DNA of 52,734 nt from a virus. The stretch is from the IMG/VR virus record IMGVR_UViG_3300030399_000018; one strand, written 5' to 3'. Positions 1-39,023 of this stretch are shown here, piece after piece. The notes under the pieces are model-generated. The model was not told the origin of the DNA. It did no database searches and saw only the letters and a program-made list of their open reading frames with translations. A program made the translations under genes and the position numbers. Positions within the stretch are counted from its first letter, which is position 1, and each line of letters begins with the position of its first letter.

Positions 1-127
1 TGATTTTATTTCGAGAGGAATCTTTTACAGAAGCATTGCTAGAAGAGGTTGCATCTTTGACTGAAGATCATTGGGATGAGGTGGCTAACTTTAAAGACAC
101 GATTAAGCTGGCAGTAGACAATGAGAA
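1..127. repeat. Left copy of the 127-bp terminal direct repeat (identical to 52608-52734); circular-closure overlap
   Basis: The string tgattttatttcgagagg...gcagtagacaatgagaa at 1-127 recurs exactly at 52608-52734. The window ends exactly at the repeat end. Confidence 0.95.
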
Positions 128-458
128 ATATATCTCCCTTGGTTTGAAGAAATCCTGTCGGTTATATACCATGAGGGATGACGACAGATTAGTTGGATAT
201 ATGTCTGTATTAGTAGACACCCATCTCCACTATAAGAATGATCTATTTGCATTTGTTGATACAATCTTTATAGATATCGATTATCGTAAAGGTGCTAGTG
301 CGCTCTACTTTATGAAATTGGTAGAAAATCAAATGAAGTTGTTGGATGTAAAAGTAATGTCATACCACATTAAAGTAAAAGCAGATTATCCTGCTATTTT
401 CAAACGGCTCAAATTCGAAAAGGTTGAGCATATTTATTCTAAACTGTTAGGGGAATAA
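1..458 (+). CDS. GNAT-like acetyltransferase, paralog 2. The 5' end is cut by the window edge; the true ATG is at 52607 and the gene wraps the junction.
   Basis: The frame is open from base 1. In the duplicate copy, an ATG at 52607 (ATGA overlap with the upstream stop) gives MILFREESFTEALLEEVASL. The ORF track start at 36 is an internal TTG. FIDIDYRKGASALYFMKLVE resembles the GNAT acetyl-CoA motif A. Confidence 0.6.
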   Translation, partial: ILFREESFTEALLEEVASLTEDHWDEVANFKDTIKLAVDNEKYISLGLKKSCRLYTMRDDDRLVGYMSVLVDTHLHYKNDLFAFVDTIFIDIDYRKGASALYFMKLVENQMKLLDVKVMSYHIKVKADYPAIFKRLKFEKVEHIYSKLLGE

Positions 459-459
459 C

Positions 460-1737
460 ATGGGATTTTCTGGAGCCGCTGCGGCGGGAGAGGGTGCAAA
501 AGCTGCTGGTGAAGCCGGTGCAGGGGCCGTCACTGCGGGTGGCCTGGGAGCTGCTGGTGCGACCGCTGGTGGTTTAAGTACCGGCGCACTGGCGGGCATT
601 ACCTCAGGGGTACTTGCAGATGGTGGTGCCACTCTGGGTGGCCTTAGCGGTATTGCTGGTCTTGGTGCCGGAGGAGCCGTTGGTGCTGGTGCACTAGGAG
701 CATCATCTCTTGCCTCTATTGGAGCAGGGCTCGGCGCTGGTATCGCAGGTGGTGACGCCTTGGGGGACTTTGCTGGAGGGAGTTTGTTGTCCTCGGGGGG
801 TGGTCTACCTTCAGCGGGTGGGGATGTATTCTTGAATGCTGACGGCTCTCTGTCGGCGGCCCCGGGTTCTCCGACTGCTGCGGCGTCAGGGACTTCCCCA
901 ACGAGTGCCCTCGCCAACACCAGTGCAAATGGTCTAGGCACCACAGGCACTCCCACGGGCAGTATTGGTGGGGCTGCTCCCAGCTCGGTGACCGGCCCTA
1001 CAGGCGGCGCTCAATTTACTGATGCTACCCAGGGCGCGGCCCAGTTCTCTGACGCCCCACAGGCTGCCCCACTGGGAGCTAATCCAGGGGCTGCCGGCGC
1101 GGCGGGGGATCAGGGATCATTGTCAAGTCTATATGGTCCAAACTCTACGGCGATCCAAAGTCCTATGGGACAGGCTATCTCAGGCTCCACTGGTGGGGAT
1201 GTTGGCGGGGCTACTATGGGCCAGGTCATTCCGAATATGGGCACTCTGGGGCAAGGCTCTCCTAGCTTTCTTAGCTCTATGTTTGGTGATGCTAGTGGGA
1301 ACATTACCCCAGGTAGTGTGGCCCAGAAAGAGGCACCTAATCTTATTAGCTCTTTGGCAAATGAAGGTCTGGGAGCGTATCAGCAATATGCTAAAAACCA
1401 GGCAGCAAAGAACTACGCAAATCAAATTAGCCAACTATATAGTCCCACGGGGGCCTATGCTCAACAGATGCAGCAGACCTTGGCTAGGCAAGATGCCGCC
1501 GCTGGGCGTAACAGTCAATCTGGCACTCGTGCTGTGCAGCTTGCCGCCGCTCTGACCCAAGGACAGGCACAGGCACTTGGTGGTAATAACTACTCACAGG
1601 CATCTCAGAATGTGGCCAGGACTGACGCCTTGAATGGTCTGTTCACACCCACCATTATGAATGCTGCCGGTACTGCGGGAACATCCGCCTACACCGGACT
1701 GGCTGGTCTTTTTAGCTCGCCGTCTTACTCATATTAA
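460..1737 (+). CDS. Gly/Ala/Ser/Thr-rich low-complexity virion protein (putative ejection/internal protein)
   Basis: The ATG lies 1 nt after the upstream stop. The N-terminal ~230 aa are almost only G/A/S/T and the C-terminus is Q/A/N-rich. It sits in the block preceding the SLT-domain giant protein. Confidence 0.6.
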   Translation: MGFSGAAAAGEGAKAAGEAGAGAVTAGGLGAAGATAGGLSTGALAGITSGVLADGGATLGGLSGIAGLGAGGAVGAGALGASSLASIGAGLGAGIAGGDALGDFAGGSLLSSGGGLPSAGGDVFLNADGSLSAAPGSPTAAASGTSPTSALANTSANGLGTTGTPTGSIGGAAPSSVTGPTGGAQFTDATQGAAQFSDAPQAAPLGANPGAAGAAGDQGSLSSLYGPNSTAIQSPMGQAISGSTGGDVGGATMGQVIPNMGTLGQGSPSFLSSMFGDASGNITPGSVAQKEAPNLISSLANEGLGAYQQYAKNQAAKNYANQISQLYSPTGAYAQQMQQTLARQDAAAGRNSQSGTRAVQLAAALTQGQAQALGGNNYSQASQNVARTDALNGLFTPTIMNAAGTAGTSAYTGLAGLFSSPSYSY

Positions 1738-1755
1738 TGATAGGGACTATCAAAA

Positions 1756-2766
1756 ATGCCATATACAAATGACGCCCAAACGCTTGCGGATATTGTGAGT
1801 CCTGCCGCTGCGGCTATGCAAATGCAGACCCAGAACGAGCAGGCTAATCAAGAACAAGCTATCAAGAATCAAGTGCTCCAACAACAAGCTCCAGCTATGG
1901 GACAGCAAATTGCTGCTCAGAATGCTGAGGCTCAAGCACGAGCAGCCAATCTCACGGCAAACACCCAAGGTCAGCAACTTACCAATCAAGGAACTGCTGC
2001 TACCCAACCAGGGGCAATTGCTGCTGCCAACGCTGGTAACTCAGCTAAGATGACTGCTGACCAAGCACAGAAACTTAGTACCTATGGTCAGATTGCGGGA
2101 CAGGTAGCTGGCATGATGGACAACGTTCCTCCTGCTGCTCGACCCGCAGCTATGAATCAGATGCTCCAGCAATACGGTGTAGATCCTAAGATGCTTGGTC
2201 CTTTAGCCAACGGTGATCCAGACATGCTCCGGAACTTCTCTCAGAAGGCTATTCAACAAAGTGCCAACTTTCAAACTGAGATGGCTAAGACGACCCTCCA
2301 AGGTCAGAACCAACAAGCTAATACTGGCCTGGAGAATCAAGGTCGTGTGGCATCTTCGCAGATCCTTGCTGGGGGTAGGGCCGATGTTGCTAACATCAAC
2401 GCCAATGCTAAGATGAGCGCAACTCCTGCGGCTGTACAAGCCCAGTTGGAAAAGAAGGTGGCAGACGGCACTGCAAATCCTCAAGAGATTTCCTCGGTAA
2501 ACCAACTACGTCAGTTGAATCAGATGGCCAAGGTCAATCCTATGATTGCTGCTATGCTGAACCAAGCCAATGCACAGTCAACAATGCCCCAGGTGCCTCA
2601 GGCAGGCCCAGCGCCCTCGGCGGCACCTACGCCCATCCCATCTAACGATGCTGGGCAGAAGGCAGTGTCGAGTAAGTTTGGTTCGTATGATCCTGATAAG
2701 TTCACTTACGTGCAGGCGATTAATCCGAAAACCGGCCAGATGGACGTGGGCCGTATTCCTAAATAA
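1756..2766 (+). CDS. Gln/Ala/Asn-rich virion protein (putative ejection/internal protein)
   Basis: 336-aa ORF with Q/A/N-rich helical-looking sequence. It is tightly packed between the Gly-rich protein and the 1586-aa protein. Confidence 0.6.
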   Translation: MPYTNDAQTLADIVSPAAAAMQMQTQNEQANQEQAIKNQVLQQQAPAMGQQIAAQNAEAQARAANLTANTQGQQLTNQGTAATQPGAIAAANAGNSAKMTADQAQKLSTYGQIAGQVAGMMDNVPPAARPAAMNQMLQQYGVDPKMLGPLANGDPDMLRNFSQKAIQQSANFQTEMAKTTLQGQNQQANTGLENQGRVASSQILAGGRADVANINANAKMSATPAAVQAQLEKKVADGTANPQEISSVNQLRQLNQMAKVNPMIAAMLNQANAQSTMPQVPQAGPAPSAAPTPIPSNDAGQKAVSSKFGSYDPDKFTYVQAINPKTGQMDVGRIPK

Positions 2767-2768
2767 CT

Positions 2769-5700
2769 ATGGCCAATATCGACTTCGGTAACACTCCCTC
2801 TAATGCCCCCGCCCCGAGCGGGGGTGTTTCTTCATCAGCTCTGTACGCACAGGATGCTCTTATCCAGGCCAATCATGCAGCATGGCCCACCGGGGGTAGT
2901 GCTGCCCAACTGAGTCAAGAAACAAACAACTACAACAGTAATGCCGTATCCCCTAAAGGGGCTATGGGCATTGCTCAGGTAGAGCCAGACACCCTCAAAG
3001 CTGTAGAACAACAAGTGGGACGCAAGCTTGACCCTAAGAATGTCAATGATGCCTTGACCATCCATGCTTATGTGATGAACCAGAATCTCGATAAGTTTGG
3101 TGGAGATCCCTCTAAAGCTGTGGCTGCCTACAACAGTGGATGGGATCCTAGCAAGTGGAATAATCCCGAGACCTCAAACTATGTCAACAAGTTTAATGGA
3201 GCTACGCAAGGGGCTACCAATGCTATCGACTTCGGGGATGGTACTAAGGTTAGTACCCCTGGTAGTATAGATTTTGGCGACACACCCGGCGCTGACAAAG
3301 GATCCTCCACCTGGGATAATATCAAAGGTCTTGGAATGCAGGCCGCCAATATCGGAGTGGGTGCCCTTGAAGCACTACCTATTGGTGTGAGCACGGCACT
3401 CCATGTGGGGGAGAATCTCTACCAAGGACAAGGCGTTGGGCAAGCAGTTCAAACGGCTGCTCAACAGGGCATGGGAGAGTTTCAAGCAGCTTCCCCAGAG
3501 ACACTACTGAATAAGGCTGGTGTCAATACTGATTCCCTCCATGGAACGCAAGGTTACGATCTGCCTGCTAAAGCTCTGGATTTTATCTCGAACACGCTTC
3601 CCGAGAAGGCAGCCCCGTACTTTGCGCAGGGTATTGCAAATGCTACTGGTTATGATAAGCCCATTACAGACCAGGATCTTGCTGATATCAAGGGGGGAAT
3701 CCAGACAGGAATGTTGGTTACTCCTGCGGCAGAAATCCTTCATCGTATGGGTGGCCCCAAAGCGGGCACTCCTGAAGCCACGGCTGAGTTGGACAAACTC
3801 AATCAAACAGACATGGAGGCTCCTAAAGGTCCGACTACGGGCGTACAACAAGGCATTGATTTTGGGGACGTTGACAGGGCTAACAATGCTTATCAAGCCG
3901 CCACCATTGATGCTCAAGAGAATGCTCTAGCTGATGTGCCAGGACAGACTCTTGATGCTATGCGGGAGCAAGCACAGAATGAAGCCGCTGGCATTAACAG
4001 TGATGCAGATGTAGCAGAAGCTAAAGCCGCAGGACAGGGAGATCTCTTCTCTGAACCCAGCTCGGTAGATCTGGAAATGCAGCGTCGTATTGATGCTATG
4101 AAGTCGGCAGATCCTCAACAGTTGGATATGTTTAGTGATCCAGCACAACATCCTTTTGATCAGTTCATGACTCGTGGAGCTACTGATGAGGAGATGAAAT
4201 CGGGTTCTCCCGCCGATGCACCAAGAACGCTGTCCCAAGATGAGTTTGAACAGACCATGCAAAATCTAGCTAGTACAGTAGATGATCAAGGTCGTCCTAA
4301 AACTGGCGTCACCATGCCAGACGATATGGAAGATGCCTATAACAAGTATCTAGATACTGTCCGTGATGACCAAGGTGGTCTCTTTGATCGTGCCACTATG
4401 GCCAAGAACTTCGCTGAAAGCGCAGCGGCAGATGCTATGGACAGGCGTGTGGCAGAGCATCCCATTGTGGCTGCTGCACAGGCTCGCGTTGATTCTTTCA
4501 ATGCACAGATAGCGGCCTCGCAAGAAGCGGGGCATGGGGTGACTAACCTCACTCAACAGCGCGATCTAGCGCAGGCCACTCTTGAAAAGGCCAAGACCAA
4601 TATTGGCAAAGCACTAGGCCGTGATCCTACCCTTCCCTGGGAAAAAGATGGTGTAGTGAATATGTTCACCTTCGGTAACTTGCCAGAGATGTGGCGTTCC
4701 ATGAAAGCGGTGCTTCAGGGTATCCACGGCGTTGCTTTCAAGATGCTGGATAAGATGATCAATCGTCCTGGCAATCTTGATTCAACAGGTAAGATTGTTA
4801 CTGCTGGTATGAAGCAGTTTGCCTCTCGTGAAGCTAATCGGGATTGGGCTCAGACTGTTAATGAGCAGCCTAAGGCTGTGTTGAAGGGCGTAGCGGGACT
4901 CCGCTCGGGTATTGACTCATTCAATCCCTACGAAGCCCAAGAAATCAGCCCTGCTGAGATCAAGCAACAGATGATTCAAGCTCCTGACTTGGCTCCTGGG
5001 ACTGTTAAATCGGCTCTACGGAATAACATCCTACAAGGTGGGCAACAAATGTCTATCTTCAGCCGCAATCCTATTGTCAAGTATGTTACTGAATCAATGG
5101 ATCGAGCACTACGAGATGCTCAGCACTTTACCCGCACTGCCTTGATGGGTAAGGATGGACTGCGTGAAAAGATCCGTGGTATGTCAGAAGACGAACTTAC
5201 GGGTATCCGATCCCTCATGGAACTCAATGAAGGTGTGAAGGAATTTACTCCCAACGAACTGAAAGGACGTGGGTTCAGTGACAAGCAGGTTGATTACTAC
5301 AACAAGTCTCGTGAGCTTAGCAAAGGTGCTTATGACGCACTCAACCGGGGTCGTGCCCTTGCCGGGCTTCCCGCTGTGGACCAACGTATTGGTCACATTG
5401 CTGGATACTTCATGGGAGATTTTAAACGTCTGGTAACGGACGGAGAGGGTAGTGTACGTGCAGTCCTGGCCCACAACAATCGCTTTGCGTTGAATACTAT
5501 CTCTCAGCATTTCATGGAAAATCACCCTGATGCAGCCAACCTCAAGTTGGGTGAGATCAAGATGAACAAACTCAATGATGCTGGTAATGGTATGGACCAT
5601 CGGTTCGAAGGTTACATGAATACCATCAACATGCTCAAAGAGACCAACGCTGATGTGGCACAGGTGGTAGATGCATACAAGACGTATATGTCTCGTGATG

Positions 5701-7529
5701 CTGCTAACGCCATGAAATACCGTGCTGCATATAAATCTAAGGAGGGGGTGATTGGCGCAGAAGGGCGCAAGATGTGGCAGTCAGCACAGAAGAATGCTGT
5801 GGATGGAGCGAAGCAAGAACTTCACTCGCTGGAGGCTATTAACAAATGGGCTGAGGTACAGAAGTCGATCCACGACTCCAAGCAGTTCCTAGCGGACCCG
5901 GAGATTGATAAGCCCAACGCCAAGGGAATGGCTCAAGCTTATCTCGATAACGTCCAACACAGGAACCAAGGTCTAGGTCAACAGTTTGTTAACAGTCTTG
6001 TTAATGGTGTATCAGAGGTTACCGGGGTAGGTCCGAGTCAACTACGTAACTTTAGTGCTGGCACCAAGACTGGGCTGCTTACAATGTTTATCGGTCTTGG
6101 GAAATTAAGCCACTCTTTCGTAACACTGATTCAACCTTTGCAAGGTATTCCAGTAGTAAATTCTCTGATGAAAGCCCGGGGAGCGGATCTGGGTCTAGCT
6201 CAAGTTTCAGCAGTTGTGAAGTCAATGATGAGTCAGAAGGATATGTTGCAAGCACTGACGACAAAAGGAACTGTAAGCGATCCATTTGTTCGTAAAGCGT
6301 TAGATTACGCATCGAAGAATGATACCTTTAATAGTTCGCAGTTTCAGTTTGGACACTTGACAGACGTTAACCGAAGTCGGCTAGGTTCCAATCTGCGGAC
6401 GGCCTTTGAGTTTAACGTCACTGGTATGGAAGCAGGTACTCGTAGCTTTACCTACATGTACTACGCCCACATGCTCCGTGACCTGGGGCTTCCTGACAAT
6501 GAGGCATTAGCAACTGCTCATAATGCAATGCGCAGTGTGATGGTGGATTATAGTGCGTGGGAACGTCCTGGTGTGTTTGGTAAGTTGGGCTTCCTTGGTG
6601 ACTTGACGGCCATGTTGACGCGGTACAAGTTTAACCAATTGAGCCAGTATGCTACCGCAGGTAAGGAGATGGGCAATGGTAAATTTATGCCTATGGTTTC
6701 TTTACTCACGACTAGCCTTGCTGCTGCTGGGGCTCGTGGGTTCATTGGTTATAGTGTTGCTAATGAGTTGGTGAAGTTCCTTTCTACCTGGGCAGCTAAG
6801 AACAGTAGCACCATTCAACCTACCAGTCTGGATCAAATCTTCTTGCATGCTATTCATGGATTAAACCCACACCTCAGGGACGCTTTGAATTTTGGACTGC
6901 CCTCTGGACTGGGATTAAATCTTACCGGCTCGTTGAGCCACGCAGATGATATTCCAAATGATCCGTTGGGTACGTTGTTACCCCAGGCACAGCCACTTGG
7001 TAACATTGCTAAGTCGGCCTATGAGTTTGCTCACAATCCGAACAAGCAAACAGCCAAGACTGCTGTGTATGATGCCTCTCCTAACTCGGTTAAGGGTATC
7101 GAAGAGAACCATATGTTCACTGATGCTAATGGGAATTACTACAATCCACACACTCAGTTGCTGGAAACCAACCGGTCTCCTGCTGACCAGACTAAACGAA
7201 CCTTTGGGTTCCGTCCGGTCAAAGAAGCTAACGATGACTTCACAGCGAACATAGCTAAGGAACAAGGGAATCAATTAGCTGAGGTTCGTCAAGACGTCAT
7301 CAAGAAGATGTTGTCAGATCGAGATGCTGGTAGTTTGACGCAACAAGGGATGCAGCAATACGCACAGCGGTATGTCCAACTACAAGGAGATCCGTCTGAT
7401 CTGACCTCGGCTATTGTTGAGCACGCAGGTATTGGACAGCACTTGGATCGGCTACAGCGTGAGCAAGGCATTCCTAACAGTGGCCTCAGCTCTATCTATA
7501 AATATGAAAGAGGAGATACACTCAAATGA
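2769..7529 (+). CDS. Giant internal virion / DNA-ejection protein with an N-terminal lytic transglycosylase (SLT, GH23) domain
   Basis: 1586 aa. SLT motifs are present near the N-terminus: QET(NNYN), GAMGIAQV and AAYNSGW. The size and position match podovirus internal core proteins with a murein-hydrolase domain. Confidence 0.9.
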   Translation: MANIDFGNTPSNAPAPSGGVSSSALYAQDALIQANHAAWPTGGSAAQLSQETNNYNSNAVSPKGAMGIAQVEPDTLKAVEQQVGRKLDPKNVNDALTIHAYVMNQNLDKFGGDPSKAVAAYNSGWDPSKWNNPETSNYVNKFNGATQGATNAIDFGDGTKVSTPGSIDFGDTPGADKGSSTWDNIKGLGMQAANIGVGALEALPIGVSTALHVGENLYQGQGVGQAVQTAAQQGMGEFQAASPETLLNKAGVNTDSLHGTQGYDLPAKALDFISNTLPEKAAPYFAQGIANATGYDKPITDQDLADIKGGIQTGMLVTPAAEILHRMGGPKAGTPEATAELDKLNQTDMEAPKGPTTGVQQGIDFGDVDRANNAYQAATIDAQENALADVPGQTLDAMREQAQNEAAGINSDADVAEAKAAGQGDLFSEPSSVDLEMQRRIDAMKSADPQQLDMFSDPAQHPFDQFMTRGATDEEMKSGSPADAPRTLSQDEFEQTMQNLASTVDDQGRPKTGVTMPDDMEDAYNKYLDTVRDDQGGLFDRATMAKNFAESAAADAMDRRVAEHPIVAAAQARVDSFNAQIAASQEAGHGVTNLTQQRDLAQATLEKAKTNIGKALGRDPTLPWEKDGVVNMFTFGNLPEMWRSMKAVLQGIHGVAFKMLDKMINRPGNLDSTGKIVTAGMKQFASREANRDWAQTVNEQPKAVLKGVAGLRSGIDSFNPYEAQEISPAEIKQQMIQAPDLAPGTVKSALRNNILQGGQQMSIFSRNPIVKYVTESMDRALRDAQHFTRTALMGKDGLREKIRGMSEDELTGIRSLMELNEGVKEFTPNELKGRGFSDKQVDYYNKSRELSKGAYDALNRGRALAGLPAVDQRIGHIAGYFMGDFKRLVTDGEGSVRAVLAHNNRFALNTISQHFMENHPDAANLKLGEIKMNKLNDAGNGMDHRFEGYMNTINMLKETNADVAQVVDAYKTYMSRDAANAMKYRAAYKSKEGVIGAEGRKMWQSAQKNAVDGAKQELHSLEAINKWAEVQKSIHDSKQFLADPEIDKPNAKGMAQAYLDNVQHRNQGLGQQFVNSLVNGVSEVTGVGPSQLRNFSAGTKTGLLTMFIGLGKLSHSFVTLIQPLQGIPVVNSLMKARGADLGLAQVSAVVKSMMSQKDMLQALTTKGTVSDPFVRKALDYASKNDTFNSSQFQFGHLTDVNRSRLGSNLRTAFEFNVTGMEAGTRSFTYMYYAHMLRDLGLPDNEALATAHNAMRSVMVDYSAWERPGVFGKLGFLGDLTAMLTRYKFNQLSQYATAGKEMGNGKFMPMVSLLTTSLAAAGARGFIGYSVANELVKFLSTWAAKNSSTIQPTSLDQIFLHAIHGLNPHLRDALNFGLPSGLGLNLTGSLSHADDIPNDPLGTLLPQAQPLGNIAKSAYEFAHNPNKQTAKTAVYDASPNSVKGIEENHMFTDANGNYYNPHTQLLETNRSPADQTKRTFGFRPVKEANDDFTANIAKEQGNQLAEVRQDVIKKMLSDRDAGSLTQQGMQQYAQRYVQLQGDPSDLTSAIVEHAGIGQHLDRLQREQGIPNSGLSSIYKYERGDTLK

Positions 7530-8110
7530 CCAACGTAAACAATCTAACCTACTCCGCTAATGGGTTGAAGCTGACGGAAGAATTCGAAAGCCTCTCCCTT
7601 AATGCCTACCAAGATGGTACAGGGGTCTGGACGAACGGGGATGGAAATACTCATAATGTAACTCCAGGCTCTACAATTACGGCGGCTCAGGCTACTTCGG
7701 ATCTGGCGGCGAATGTTGAAGGTGCTGCATATGTGGTCAATACGGTCGTCACCACACCATTGAACCAAAACCAGTTTGATGCTCTCGTAGATTTTGTCTT
7801 CAATCTCGGCTCGGGTAACTTCCAAAGTTCCACGCTGCTTCGGAAGCTCAACAATAATGACTTTGTGGGAGCATCCCAGGAATTTCCTAAGTGGAATCAT
7901 GCTGGTGGTGTCGTGGTTGATGGTTTAACGAGGCGTAGGCTTGCGGAGCAAGTACTCTTCAATACTCCGACAGTCGTGAATCAACAACCAACGGCCCCTG
8001 TAGTATCTGCTGGGATACCACCCAACAGCGGTGATCCACAACCTTCGGTTACGGAAGTAATTTCTAATGCTGAGAATTGGTTGTCTAATCTTCAAGATAA
8101 GCTCCCATGA
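7526..8110 (+). CDS. GH24 phage lysozyme (P22 gp19 / T4 E-like), putative endolysin
   Basis: Its LTEEFES...AYQDGTGVWTNGDGNT and PLNQNQFDALVDFVFNLG and STLLRKLN motifs parallel P22 gp19 (E..AY.D..G..T.G.G, PLNQNQYDAL, STVLRQLN). The ATGA start overlaps the upstream stop. Confidence 0.9.
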   Translation: MTNVNNLTYSANGLKLTEEFESLSLNAYQDGTGVWTNGDGNTHNVTPGSTITAAQATSDLAANVEGAAYVVNTVVTTPLNQNQFDALVDFVFNLGSGNFQSSTLLRKLNNNDFVGASQEFPKWNHAGGVVVDGLTRRRLAEQVLFNTPTVVNQQPTAPVVSAGIPPNSGDPQPSVTEVISNAENWLSNLQDKLP

Positions 8111-35148: not shown

Positions 35149-35178
35149 AAAAAAAGCCGATAGTTAAAAGCTATCGGC
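35149..35178 (-). terminator. Rho-independent terminator (minus strand) ending the first early transcription unit
   Basis: The minus strand reads GCCGATAG-CTTTTAA-CTATCGGC followed by TTTTTTT. Confidence 0.85.
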
Positions 35179-35208
35179 CTATAAAATACTCAGGTTAGTA
35201 CTATTTCA

Positions 35209-35418
35209 TTACATGGGATGCCAACTATTGCCCAGATATTCCCAGAAAACCACGCGGAATCCGGATTTTTGAGATAGCAAAAACTTGGAGTATTCGGCAG
35301 GGTCCACAATGTAGCCCAACAGCGTGCCGCGTGCGTTACACAGAGCCCAATAACGATATTGCCCGGTTTGACGCGCTACCTCACGAGCCTTTGCCTCTGT
35401 AGTAAGAAAAGTAAACAT
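35209..35418 (-). CDS. Early hypothetical protein
   Basis: 69-aa ORF whose ATG lies 1 nt after the upstream stop. Confidence 0.5.
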   Translation of the reverse strand: MFTFLTTEAKAREVARQTGQYRYWALCNARGTLLGYIVDPAEYSKFLLSQKSGFRVVFWEYLGNSWHPM

Positions 35419-35419
35419 A

Positions 35420-35536
35420 TCAATAACTCCCGGAGATTAAGCGTACTGCAATTAGGCGCAAGGCAGCGCCATCTTTCCGTTTCATTTCCAGATACATGTT
35501 GCGTAATAACAACAGGCGTTGAGCGAGTTCACTCAT
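35420..35536 (-). CDS. Small early hypothetical protein (38 aa)
   Basis: MSELAQRLLLLRNMYLEMKRKDGAALRLIAVRLISGSY, with an ATGAGTGA overlap onto the upstream stop. Confidence 0.3.
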   Translation of the reverse strand: MSELAQRLLLLRNMYLEMKRKDGAALRLIAVRLISGSY

Positions 35537-35720
35537 TCTTGTAACCCGGTTTGACCAGCGAAGTACACAGCGTGACTTTATAACCATCATCCTTCGGATA
35601 CTCCTCTTTCCACTGCTTGAACCACGTTTCGGCTTCTTGTTTGACGGTTGTAACAACCTCTTCGTCATACTCACCGTATGAATCTTTGACCAAGACCTGA
35701 TACCAAGTAACGTTAGACAT
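35529..35720 (-). CDS. First early hypothetical protein (63 aa, acidic)
   Basis: This is the first convincing ORF downstream of the leftward early promoter. Confidence 0.5.
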   Translation of the reverse strand: MSNVTWYQVLVKDSYGEYDEEVVTTVKQEAETWFKQWKEEYPKDDGYKVTLCTSLVKPGYKNE

Positions 35721-36380
35721 AATGGTAAACCCCTATAAGAGAACAGAGAACAATTACAGAATAGGAGACATTTACCAGGGATGATATTAGTACAAACCCT
35801 ACGTTCCCTTCAGGAACTCACTAAACCATCAAGTAATAACGTTATTACCCCACTTACTGCTAAACAGGTTTGGTCGCGATCACAATCGCTCTAAACGCCT
35901 TATGACGGGTTAGTAAGCCAGACTGGTAGGTATGTATAGGGAAGACGGTTTGACGCCTGTGTAGAGCGTTTTGGTAGGTAATAGAGCTATTGCTATCAAC
36001 CTGGGGGACAGTGTGTATGTGATTGAATGTAAAGAACTGTGATAGAACCAACTTCATTATTAATTCATAAGAGCACAGATAAGAACCATTATTATTTAAA
36101 ATACATGTTCTCTAAGTTAAAACGACCTTCTAAGAATCTTTGACGGCATGGGGGGAAACATTCTTGGATGGAAAAGCTCGAAAGGCAGGATAATACGCTG
36201 CTATGTATTTTCTGGAGGGAGGGGTGTTTCTTATTTATATTTATTTATTTTAAAACCAGCTCGGCGGTGAAGCATACCTCGCAGCCCCTCCAGGGGCAAC
36301 ACTGTAGTACACAGCTTTAGCTGTAGTCCTCTAAGTTCAGGTAAACCTTCACTAAGAGGAATAAAACAAACCCATGCAAA

Positions 36381-36412
36381 CAAGAAAGAAAAAAGAAGTT
36401 TTTCAACTTCTT
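36381..36412 (-). promoter_or_regulatory. AT-rich hairpin plus U-run beginning ~12 nt after the predicted leftward transcription start (attenuator or 5' stabiliser candidate)
   Basis: The minus strand reads AAGAAGTT-GAAA-AACTTCTT followed by TTTTCTTTCTT. Confidence 0.4.
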
Positions 36413-36430
36413 AAAAAGAAAGAAGTATTA

Positions 36431-36459
36431 ATTATAACACAGAATAGAAGCTTTGTCAA
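36431..36459 (-). promoter_or_regulatory. Consensus sigma70 early promoter, leftward
   Basis: The minus strand reads TTGACA (36459-36454), a 17-nt spacer, then TATAAT (36436-36431). Confidence 0.75.
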
Positions 36460-36508
36460 GCTCTAGTACTAAGCTTATTACTTTATTTGTTGTTTTTGTA
36501 TCTTTTAC

Positions 36509-36537
36509 TTGACAAAACGATTAAACTATGGTAAGAT
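36509..36537 (+). promoter_or_regulatory. Sigma70-like promoter, rightward (structural arm), with an extended -10
   Basis: TTGACA (36509-36514), a 17-nt spacer ending in TGG, then TAAGAT (36532-36537). Confidence 0.7.
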
Positions 36538-36662
36538 GGTTGCTAGATGCTGATAGTTGTATCACAATTTGATGTATCTGTCAAGGGAGGTGATCCCTTA
36601 TCTCGTCCCTATCCTGGGTAAGACGTTAAAAGTGCCCCAGGGCCTACTCCAAGAGGATCCCT

Positions 36663-37229
36663 TTGAATATCTACAAACCTACTCGGCGTCGTGCTCTAAG
36701 TGCTCGAAAGAGTCGGTGGGCAGACAGCCAAAAGATCGAAGCAGTTACCACCTACATGATACTGGGCAATTTAAAGCTCGTATCAGGCGCTCTAAGCGTT
36801 CCGTATGACACCCTCAAGGTGTGGAAGGCAAGTGAGTGGTGGAAGACGATGGAGAGCGATCTACGCGTTCAGGAAGACCTCCAGCTATCCAACCGTCTGA
36901 AGAAGATCATTGCCAACAGCTATGATGCTGTTGAAGACCGCCTAGCTAATGGTGACTTCATGTTTGACCAGAAAACTGGTGAAATGCGAAGAAAGCCAGT
37001 AAACATGCGAGATGCTCACAAAGTTGCAGTTGATCTTTCTGATCGACGTGATGTAATGCTTGAACGCCACATTGCTGGTGAATCTGTAACCAACGACAAA
37101 ATTGAAGCAACTCTTCGTAATCTGGCAGAACAATTTGCCCAGATTGCCAACCAAACAAAAAAACCATCGGTTGAAGTCACTGATGTAATCTTCGGAGAAG
37201 ACTCCCAAAATGCCAAGGACAAACCCTGA
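36663..37229 (+). CDS. terS: Putative terminase small subunit
   Basis: The TTG start lies 5 nt after AAGAGGA. It is the first gene of the late arm, directly upstream of HNH and TerL. The N-terminal region looks HTH-like (ADSQKIEAVTTYMILGNLKLVSGALSVPYDTLKVWK). Confidence 0.55.
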   Translation: MNIYKPTRRRALSARKSRWADSQKIEAVTTYMILGNLKLVSGALSVPYDTLKVWKASEWWKTMESDLRVQEDLQLSNRLKKIIANSYDAVEDRLANGDFMFDQKTGEMRRKPVNMRDAHKVAVDLSDRRDVMLERHIAGESVTNDKIEATLRNLAEQFAQIANQTKKPSVEVTDVIFGEDSQNAKDKP

Positions 37230-37509
37230 TGGGACCAGAGACTACACCTACGATACCAAGTATGAATCTACTAGCGCCCATAGGCGCGAGCGATCTGAGC
37301 GAACCCTCGCCCGACGGGAGTTGGCGAAGGAAGGAAAGGTTTCGGTTGGCGACGGCCAAGATGTTGACCATATCCGCCCGTTATCTAAAGGTGGTACTAA
37401 CGCCTGGAGTAATTTACGGGTCGAGTCCGCCCATGATAACCGATCGTTTGAACGCAACTCAGACTCGTCACTGAAGCGTAACGTGAGCCCAACCAAAGGT
37501 AAGAAATGA
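37210..37509 (+). CDS. HNH endonuclease between TerS and TerL
   Basis: DVDHIRPLSKGGTNAWSNLRVESAHDNRS (H-N-H core). It overlaps both neighbours, with an ATGA overlap onto TerL. Confidence 0.85.
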   Translation: MPRTNPDGTRDYTYDTKYESTSAHRRERSERTLARRELAKEGKVSVGDGQDVDHIRPLSKGGTNAWSNLRVESAHDNRSFERNSDSSLKRNVSPTKGKK

Positions 37510-39023
37510 AGGTCACAAGAGACGTTGTAGCTGGTTTTGTTGGCTCCGTCCTTGCTCCTACCTTTGAAGATTCGTGTGCTTCACCAGAGTTTCACCAGGA
37601 GGTTTGGGATCTATGTTGCAGCGAGAACAAGTTTGTTGCTATTGCGGCCCCACGGGGACATGCGAAATCAACCGCTGTTACGCTTGGGTACGGGCTAGCT
37701 ACCCTGCTGTTCAGAGAGCGGAAGTTTATGCTGCTTGTCTCCGATACCGAAGCACAGGCGAGCCTTTTCCTAGGGAATATCAAGAACGCGCTTCAAGACA
37801 ACTCCCAGTTGATTGAATTGTTCGGATTAAAGAAGAACCCTGCTGGCCAAGTCCAGTTTATAAAAGACAGCGAAACTGACATCATTGTAGAATTTGATGA
37901 CGGACACAAGTTCCGGATAATCGCAAAGGGATCAGAACAAAAACTCCGTGGTTTGCTGTGGAACAACAGCCGCCCTGATATCATTATCGGGGATGACATG
38001 GAAAACGACGAACTTGTCATGAACAAGGAGCGTCGTGCCAAGTTTAAGAAGTGGGTTACGAATGCTCTGTTACCGTGTAGAAGCGACCAGGGCATTGTCC
38101 GTTTTGTGGGAACTATCCTCCACATGGACTCGATGCTGGAAGGTCTGATGCCCAAACCCTATGCTAAATCCACTGTAACAGAACCGCTCAAGCAGTACAG
38201 TACAGATCGTAGGATGTGGAGGTCGATCAAGTATCGTGCCCACACAGATGACTGGAAGCAGCTTCTCTGGCCTCAGAAGAAGTCTGTGAAGGAATTCAAG
38301 ATGCTCAAGCAGCAAGCCTTTGAAATGGGGTTAGCTGATGGCTATAGTCAGGAATATCTTAATATCCCAATCGACGAGTCCAGCACCTACTTCCGTCGTG
38401 CCGACTTTCTGGCCATGCGAGAAGAAGATTATAAGAAGCCTGTTCGATACTACATAGCTGTTGACTTAGCTATCTCAGACAAAGAGACAGCCGACTACAG
38501 CGTCTTTGTTATCGCAGGAGTGGATGAAGATAAACGACTCCAAGTCCGCAACGTTATCCGAGAGCGCATGGACGGTCGAGAGATCGTTGACACACTGTTG
38601 ATGCTTCAGAAGCTTTACGATCCTGAGTGTATTGGGATTGAAGAGATGCAAGTCTCCAAGGCCATTGGTCCGTTCCTTCGGGAAGAGATGCAGAGGAATA
38701 ACAACTACATCAACCTTTATCCCCTTAAACACGGTGGTAAAGACAAGATTACCAGAGCCAGATCCATCCAAGCACGTATGCGTGCCCAAGGATGTAAGTT
38801 TGATAAACAGGGTGACTGGTATCAGACCTTCGAAGATGAGCTGATGCGCTTCCCTCGGGATAAGCATGACGACCAAGTTGACGGATTCTCTTACCTTGGT
38901 TTGATGCTGGATGTGGTAATTGAAGCCCCCACCAAAGAAGATCTCGAAGAAGAAGAATATCAGATCGAGTATGAAAGCTCTGGTCTCAGTGATGAAGGCA
39001 GGAATGCAACTACTGGATATTAA
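37506..39023 (+). CDS. terL: Terminase large subunit
   Basis: It has Walker A-like AAPRGHAKST, Walker B LLVSD and IIIGDDMEND, and a C-terminal nuclease with DKHDDQVD. Confidence 0.9.
   Translation: MKVTRDVVAGFVGSVLAPTFEDSCASPEFHQEVWDLCCSENKFVAIAAPRGHAKSTAVTLGYGLATLLFRERKFMLLVSDTEAQASLFLGNIKNALQDNSQLIELFGLKKNPAGQVQFIKDSETDIIVEFDDGHKFRIIAKGSEQKLRGLLWNNSRPDIIIGDDMENDELVMNKERRAKFKKWVTNALLPCRSDQGIVRFVGTILHMDSMLEGLMPKPYAKSTVTEPLKQYSTDRRMWRSIKYRAHTDDWKQLLWPQKKSVKEFKMLKQQAFEMGLADGYSQEYLNIPIDESSTYFRRADFLAMREEDYKKPVRYYIAVDLAISDKETADYSVFVIAGVDEDKRLQVRNVIRERMDGREIVDTLLMLQKLYDPECIGIEEMQVSKAIGPFLREEMQRNNNYINLYPLKHGGKDKITRARSIQARMRAQGCKFDKQGDWYQTFEDELMRFPRDKHDDQVDGFSYLGLMLDVVIEAPTKEDLEEEEYQIEYESSGLSDEGRNATTGY

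Follow-up and report, generated by a model that had tools for sequence, protein, structure and literature searches.

A divergent promoter pair and conserved non-coding leader blocks in the control region of a phage from peat metagenomes

The interval from 35721 to 36662 of the window, which is the whole 52.7-kb stretch of DNA that was analysed, contained two divergent sigma-70 promoters, and the leader of the leftward transcript carried short non-coding blocks that were conserved in related phages. As a divergent phage control region it is ordinary in kind, while its set of motifs is previously undescribed, non-coding and widely conserved. The leader signals may form a cis-acting RNA that gates immediate-early transcription, with a C-rich block termed Module A as a platform for loading Rho. 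This proposal, derived from sequence, is tentative and stands somewhat below an even chance; attenuation or antitermination signals, which the first-pass annotation had considered, remain the best reading of the leftward leader. Phages that depend wholly on the host RNA polymerase must time early and late gene expression with no polymerase that they encode themselves. In this family the timing seems to come from one 80-bp promoter pair together with conserved signals in the leaders, for which no described RNA family gave a match.

Genome setting, relatives and coding potential

By its gene layout the 52.7-kb window can be read as one phage genome. Structural genes occupy the plus strand from 36663 to the end of the window and onward through 1-8110; early and replication genes occupy the minus strand, from 35720 leftward to 8433. 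TerL, the portal, the major head protein and an internal virion protein with a lysozyme domain were recognisable. The replication genes recognised were those for a split family-A polymerase (PolA), a DnaB-like helicase, a primase, a 5'-3' exonuclease (FEN) and endonuclease VII. The phage is podovirus-like, with a T7-type replisome. No phage RNA polymerase gene was recognised among the ORFs scanned, suggesting that the phage relies on the host sigma-70 RNA polymerase. The window contained no tRNA or tmRNA gene.

The plus-strand gene at 36663-37229 is a putative TerS, named by its position upstream of an HNH gene and TerL plus a weak HTH match only. Its N-terminal HTH part was strongly conserved. 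The conserved HNH gene (37210-37509, plus strand, 99 aa) lies between TerS and TerL and overlaps both, and TerL (37506-39023, plus strand) was nearest to Mu-like headful terminases. Because the position of the HNH gene was also kept in the relatives L003 and L005, a role in the packaging machine is more likely for its product than one as a homing endonuclease.

The DNA of the window occurs in peat metagenomes, where it was carried by 24 sequencing runs, all as peat-metagenome contigs. The sole cultured relative was Alcaligenes phage vB_Af_QDWS535 (TerL 55%, TerS 40%), followed by an uncultured Manatee Spring phage; a literature search on QDWS535 returned no paper. Relatives were gathered by TerS-guided searches, which gave 10 and then 46 viral loci, and a further 80 metagenome loci. 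A megablast search of the region against 50,697 phage records gave zero matches, as did a distant blastn search with the Module A of a relative. Among the Rfam 15 covariance models, which include phage antiterminator and leader RNAs, none matched the window at the gathering score, and for 35600-36800 the matches were at chance level only (E >= 0.48).

The gap of the window was aligned with those of its three closest relatives. Conserved islands stood amid diverged DNA at 36140-36290, at both -35 boxes and at 36585-36605. A DNA pattern from the first island retrieved further contigs of 50-56 kb, and an nhmmer profile of the island gave 60 hits (35 non-redundant), always upstream of TerS and in one orientation. 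Recognisable versions of the island were seen by eye in more distant loci (TerS 28-40%) and in QDWS535. Modules A and B were kept with TerS identity down to about 40%, and G-boxes resembling Module A were seen by eye beyond that.

The gap was described in the first-pass annotation as poor in ORFs, and this was confirmed, as ORFs of only 20-65 aa were present and none of them was conserved. When 46 stop-to-stop frames were compared with 163 loci, no relative of any frame was found outside Module A, and inside it only two opposite-strand frames gave short matches of the kind that nucleotide conservation produces. ORFs across the blocks differed in frame and length between relatives, and the indels were not multiples of 3. 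The long leftward leader thus carries conserved non-coding signals and not a hidden gene, in agreement with the earlier view of it. A Lys/Glu-rich plus-strand ORF on the purine tract (36374-36466) was rejected as a gene, since it had no ATG in several relatives and no promoter.

The promoter pair and the blocks of the PL leader

In the promoter scan, PL was found at 36459-36431 on the minus strand (TTGACA-17-TATAAT, 12/12 with TGn) and PR at 36509-36537 on the plus strand (TTGACA-17-TAAGAT, 10/12 with TGn), both of the sigma-70 type and 50 bp apart. Both correspond to extended -10 promoters, with TTGACA, TATAAT, a spacing of 17 ± 1 bp and TGn as the elements sought. The pattern TTGACA-N17-TAnnnT occurred at three sites in the whole 52.7 kb, versus 0.38 expected, and PL and PR were two of the three. 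Both promoters recurred in nearly all relatives with 9-12 of 12 hexamer matches, 10-12 in most, and usually with TGn. PR of the relatives scored 11-12/12 with TG. PL scored 10-12/12 in most of the 14 distant loci scanned, at a distance of 300-430 nt from the G-run of Module A, and also in most close relatives where it was correctly picked. The back-to-back promoters noted in the first-pass annotation were thereby confirmed by the scan, by their rarity in the window and by their recurrence, and the family-wide conservation of both supports its description of a divergent control region, which is the central one of the phage. Judged from promoter position, the PL transcript would start near 36424 and run leftward, and the PR transcript would start near 36544 and run rightward into TerS. 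No comparable plus-strand promoter was found upstream of Module A in 35 + 14 = 49 loci, and transcription from PL is therefore the only visible transcription of the blocks.

A 16-bp palindrome, GTACTAAGCTTATTAC, occupies 36466-36481 between the -35 boxes of PL and PR and is a candidate regulator site. Eight copies of the palindrome GTAMTAASSTTAKTAC, of 16 bp each, were present in the window versus 0.12 expected (3241, 27904, 29726, 32682, 32917, 34996, 35833 and 36466). One lies between the -35 boxes, one perfect copy lies in the leader and three lie in gaps just past early terminators. The palindrome looks like the site of a putative transcription regulator of the phage and would mark where early and middle units start.

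The 5' end of the PL transcript (36380-36424, minus strand) consists of CUUCUUUCUUUUU, a hairpin at 36412-36393 with the arms AAGAAGUU-GAAA-AACUUCUU, and then UUUUUUCUUUCUU. The stem has 8 bp with 2 G-C pairs and is followed by a U-run, and it was too A/U-rich to be called by the terminator scan. Thermodynamically it was ordinary (-7.4 kcal/mol, z -0.57). In close relatives two CU-rich tracts of the CUUUCUUUU type flank the hairpin, whose sequence changes while its pairing is kept by covariation. The CU tracts were also kept in distant relatives, where they flank AAGAGAUUGUUAAGAG instead and the 5' hairpin is absent. The leftward hairpin with its U-run (36412-36381), to which the first-pass annotation had drawn attention, is therefore present in the sequence, but it is weak and confined to close relatives. 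In the relative L108 the CU module as a whole is found past the rightward promoter, where it again has the transcript sense.

Two further hairpins lie on the way to Module A. H2 (36284-36297, minus strand) reads GCCCC-TCCA-GGGGC on the plus strand, and hairpins of unrelated sequence were found at its position in L003, L021, L024, L030, L035, L037, L016 and L005. Module B (36259-36282, minus strand) comprises an invariant GCTC, the stem-loop H1 and an invariant TCGC, so that the PL-sense RNA reads GCGA-hairpin-GAGC. H1 occurred in 26 distinct versions, and its three outer pairs were paired in 88% of cases in the plus sense and in 93% in the minus sense. Sixteen cells were changed at both sides, compared with 2.7 in shuffles. 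The covariation score was 0.58 versus 0.15; none of 500 shuffles reached it, and all slid controls were lower. The pairs of H1 are thus kept by compensatory changes among relatives, which was the outcome of the covariance check suggested earlier for the leader. Four C.A mismatches of the plus sense become U.G wobbles in the PL sense, and zero wobbles were unique to the plus sense. This asymmetry hints at RNA as the functional form, with about two independent lineages behind it. A second B-type motif was found in some distant relatives, and elsewhere in the window the GCTC-N-TCGC motif was not above chance. Compensatory changes were found in H1, in the PR-leader hairpin and in the PL 5' hairpin, but not in Module A.

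The AT-rich spacer at 36226-36258 ends in TTTTAAAAC. The very AT-rich stretch reported earlier for the leader is present at 36230-36255. In distant relatives the spacer is about 150 nt long and contains repeated TTTAAAC and CTTCTAGG motifs as well as further hairpins.

Module A (36140-36226, minus strand) reads on the plus strand as the G-run followed by GGGGGGAAAC...AAGCTCGAAAGG...TAATACG...TTTTCTGGAGGGAGGGG. It was found in about 35 non-redundant contigs and in QDWS535, and 33 sequences were aligned over about 85 columns with almost no indels. The near-invariant letters are G6-N-G6-A4, CGTAA, CTAC, TTTT and AAAGGNGGGG; G6-N-G6-A4 is followed by an AT-rich core of a fixed length of about 65 nt and then by AAAGGNGGGG. 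No consensus secondary structure was found by alifold on either strand, and the PL-sense RNA folded no better than shuffles (-7.2 kcal/mol over 105 nt, z -0.06). The plus-strand GC skew of the 100-nt bin with Module A was positive in 35 of 35 loci (mean 0.41), and this was the sole such bin; in the window the skew was +0.31 to +0.45 over 36130-36249. In composition Module A resembles a rut site, for which an untranslated RNA of at least some 80 nt that is rich in C, poor in G and weakly structured is expected.

In one low-coverage peat run, contigs stopped at both sides of 36034-36287, and in relatives many metagenome contigs terminated no more than about 50 nt from the G-run. The stretch of G-run and AT-run seems especially prone to assembly breaks.

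The distal leader (35721-36139, minus strand) was weakly conserved and contains the perfect palindrome GTAATAACGTTATTAC at 35833-35848. Next come the small early ORFs at 35154-35720 on the minus strand, of 63 and 69 aa plus an overlapping frame of 84 aa, which end at a strong intrinsic terminator at 35180-35154. The terminator scan showed that the early region is segmented by strong intrinsic terminators. Lineage-specific arrays of 3-5 palindromic or direct 16-22-mers were present directly left of Module A in the distant relatives L107 (1744-1911), L010 (3007-3077) and L001 (4293-4365), with TGTTGTATAATAACAACAC, TGTCGGTTTTTTGACA and TCTTATATAAGACAT as examples of the repeats; these could be iterons or operators. 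The leaders of distant relatives contained a 7-1-7 palindrome, GAGAATNATTCTC (L001:4234-4246, L098, L100, L102, L104, L105, L150, L153, L155). In the loci read by eye it sits inside TGAGAATnATTCTCA and resembles a Fur-family box; by eye it was absent from the gap of the window itself.

Possible functions of the leader blocks

The cis-acting reading starts from an immediate-early RNA of about 1.27 kb, which would run from 36424 to the terminator at 35154 and of which the first ~700 nt would be an untranslated leader acting as RNA in cis. This leader would open with the two CU tracts, with the small hairpin between them in close relatives. Two small hairpins would follow, and the one clamped by GCGA...GAGC is a candidate site for modifying or protecting the elongation complex; Module B and H2 would modulate that complex. 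Module A would then be exposed as an unstructured, C-rich and G-poor stretch of fixed length (about 85 nt) that, being rut-like, could load Rho. The leader would in this manner set the amount of transcription that reaches the small early genes. Action as RNA is suggested by the transcript sense of the CU module, by stems that covary while their sequence is free, by the wobble asymmetry, by the rut-like composition of Module A and by the segmentation of the early region by terminators; since strong intrinsic terminators cut this region, control of read-through is plausible. Several points speak against the cis-RNA reading. Module A is kept in sequence and in exact length, which a plain rut site does not need and which such a site does not explain. 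Single-sequence folds were no better than shuffles, and zero Rfam matches were obtained, known antiterminator RNAs included. The AT-rich tracts, the G/C runs and the palindromic arrays of distant relatives look origin-like, and the conserved HTH of TerS makes a conserved DNA target possible too.

In layout the region works like the lambda-type early leaders, and it shares with the left end and origin of T7 the combination of host promoter, long leader and AT-rich tract. The early leaders of the lambda PL and PR promoters carry nut (boxA and the boxB hairpin), beyond which lie Rho-dependent terminators, tR1 with rutA/rutB among them, and the put RNAs of HK022 form two stem-loops that make RNA polymerase terminator-resistant. 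The region studied here shares with them divergent early promoters for the host polymerase, leader hairpins that adjoin short conserved single-stranded words, a C-rich unstructured patch downstream and terminators within the early region. It differs in that no boxA/boxB words were seen in the leaders read by eye and no Rfam match was obtained, in the conservation of Module A in sequence and exact length, and in that no N-like protein is known here. The second promoter, moreover, drives the packaging and structural operon and not a lysogeny/replication arm. At the left end of T7 the strong host promoters A1-A3 precede a long untranslated early leader, and the primary origin of T7 consists of promoters followed by a 61-bp AT-rich region. 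The replisome genes, the internal virion protein with its lysozyme domain, the consensus host promoters in front of a long leader and the AT-rich tract directly downstream of a promoter all recall T7. Unlike in T7, no phage RNA polymerase was among the scanned ORFs and the divergent promoters adjoin TerS, and the G-run boxes and the GCTC-hairpin-TCGC motif have no T7 counterpart.

The same features might instead belong to a transcription-activated replication origin for the T7-like replisome, with PL doubling as early promoter. This rival, which touches on the origin-proximal reading of the first-pass annotation, is a live one but less likely than the cis-acting leader. Such an origin would comprise PL, the AT- and purine-rich tract just downstream of it, the G-run-flanked AT core of Module A, and the hairpins as single-strand initiation signals. 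The T7-like replisome, for which no dedicated initiator was recognised, is in keeping with this, as are the AT-rich tract of 60-150 bp that follows PL in relatives, the strict spacing within Module A and the repeat arrays that L107, L010 and L001 carry next to it. The cumulative GC skew, which the first-pass annotation had proposed to inspect for an origin, has its minimum here, at about 35-36 kb; however, the skew switch coincides with the switch of the gene strand and is not independent evidence. The oriV of RSF1010 contains iterons, a GC-rich stretch, an AT-rich stretch and the single-strand initiation hairpins ssiA/ssiB, and at the mitochondrial heavy-strand origin the G-run of conserved sequence block II is served by a T7-like polymerase and helicase. 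Repeats (in the relatives), G/C runs, an AT-rich core, word-framed hairpins and a T7-like replisome are found here as well. AT-rich tracts are present and repeat arrays occur in the three relatives named; the window itself is without iterons, and its palindromes are dispersed after early terminators, like transcription-factor sites. Where two B-type hairpins are both present they lie on one strand, which is a further difference from these origins. The covarying stems of free sequence and the U.G wobbles confined to the PL sense suit RNA better than an origin. In addition, PL makes a C-rich RNA and not the G-rich RNA that the mitochondrial mechanism needs, and a pyrimidine-rich RNA is, by established hybrid stability, a poor orientation for a persistent R-loop. 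It is a long shot that Module A and the GCTC-hairpin-TCGC clamps form a new family-wide signal by which transcription of the host polymerase from PL is coupled to the initiation of DNA synthesis by the phage, and no better a chance is given to that signal being the phage counterpart of the mitochondrial G-run block.

A packaging signal or genome end is improbable, though slightly less so than this coupling. Module A and its flanks would then be a cos or pac site bound by the HTH of TerS together with HNH-TerL. In every case the block precedes TerS by 0.4-0.9 kb and has one orientation, TerS is highly conserved at its N-terminus, and the HNH gene between TerS and TerL is conserved, such a gene being a hallmark of HK97-type cos phages. 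Of the 66 truncated contigs listed, at least 9 have an end no more than about 50 nt from the G-run (L074 and 8 from the regex table), and the start sequences of L116 and L120 also fall near it. Both the contigs that bridge the site and the cluster of contig ends, however, also fit an assembly break. Contigs of three runs bridge the site unbroken, the 254-nt hole that a fourth run shows at the G-run and AT-run is what a break from low coverage typically looks like, and a 51.6-kb record whose first letters follow directly on the G-run closes on itself, about 127 nt separating the G-run from the end of the record. For these reasons the clustering was set aside as a sign of a genome terminus. Moreover, PL sits between the block and TerS and transcribes across the block, it is the promoters, not TerS, that the block accompanies in loci where extra genes are inserted upstream of TerS, and TerL is nearest to headful terminases. 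A comparably small chance is given to a trans-acting RNA, in which an abundant PL leader, or a short attenuated CU-rich RNA with its end at the 5' hairpin and U-run, would serve as a stable sRNA or decoy and titrate a host factor, for example Rho, Hfq or a defence sensor. In its favour, the transcript is mostly non-coding and comes from a consensus promoter, its CU-rich 5' part with hairpin and U-tail is sRNA-like in close relatives, and the C-tracts suit Rho binding. Against this, the 5' hairpin is absent in distant relatives, there is no evidence of a stable 3' end, and no Rfam family matched. Nothing pointed to the anti-defence RNA that had been suggested for the leftward leader.

The cis-acting leader, the origin and the packaging site all concern blocks that are short, sharply defined and present in the culturable phage QDWS535, so that roles in Rho action or antitermination, replication or packaging are directly testable. 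Any of the three roles, if true, would give a widespread group of phages from freshwater, soil and peat, known almost exclusively from metagenomes, its first functional landmark.

The PR leader and the start of TerS

The conserved motif of the PR leader (36585-36629, plus strand) consists of GGGAGGTGATCC at 36585-36596, TATCT, a hairpin CGTC...GACG at 36604-36625 and TTAA. The arms of the hairpin in the window lie at 36604-36607 and 36622-36625. In 9 close relatives the unit reads [A/G]GGAGGTGATCC, 2-3 nt, TATCT, the hairpin and TTA[A/C]. Six stem sequences were present among these nine (CGTC/GACG, CACGG/CCGTG, CCTAC/GTAGG, CGG/CCG, CCCAG/CTGGG and CGTG/CACG); the stems were listed by script, as the alignment was too ragged for counting pairs. 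Distant relatives have a simple 5' stem-loop after PR instead. Both rightward hairpins of the first-pass annotation, AAGGGA/TCCCTT and CCTGGG/CCCAGG, are present in the window, but neither is kept in relatives: at the site of the former the relatives keep the sequence GGAGGTGATCC and not a hairpin, and the latter is specific to the window.

The GGAGGTGATCC box is an 11-13-nt stretch that we take to be the exact complement of the 3' tail of 16S rRNA. This unusually long SD-like box precedes TerS by 60-110 nt, and TerS has a ribosome site of its own. In the 9 close relatives neither a start codon nor a frame was conserved after the box. A tiny upstream ORF beginning at the conserved ATC after the box was rejected, as its length varied from 3 to 28 codons and its frame varied too; a GACGTTAA stop was in frame with that ATC in 3 of 9 sequences only. 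The TTG start of TerS at 36663, as assigned earlier, is plausible, with the SD sequence AAGAGGA (36651-36657) 5 nt upstream.

A STAB-SD is an SD-like sequence in a leader that binds 30S subunits without starting a gene, and was first described for cryIIIA of Bacillus thuringiensis. The SD-like stretch of the PR leader is similar in its length of 11-13 nt, in its position 60-110 nt before the TerS ribosome site and in the lack of a conserved frame. It differs in that the box is followed by the conserved TATCT-hairpin-TTAA. By analogy only, the PR box may work like a STAB-SD stabiliser; most likely the box and hairpin would dock 30S subunits and so protect or prime the long late mRNA.

Some relatives showed additional elements in this interval. 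In L031, L032, L112 and L024, though not in the window, a second promoter-like site of the TTGACA-N17-TGGTAG type lies in tandem about 25-60 nt downstream of PR, and a small covarying hairpin directly precedes the SD-like box. L088, L085, L096 and L075 carry small ORFs for signal-peptide-like proteins between PR and TerS, and in L075 a tRNA-Met (CAT) gene (1409-1484) is inserted there as well.
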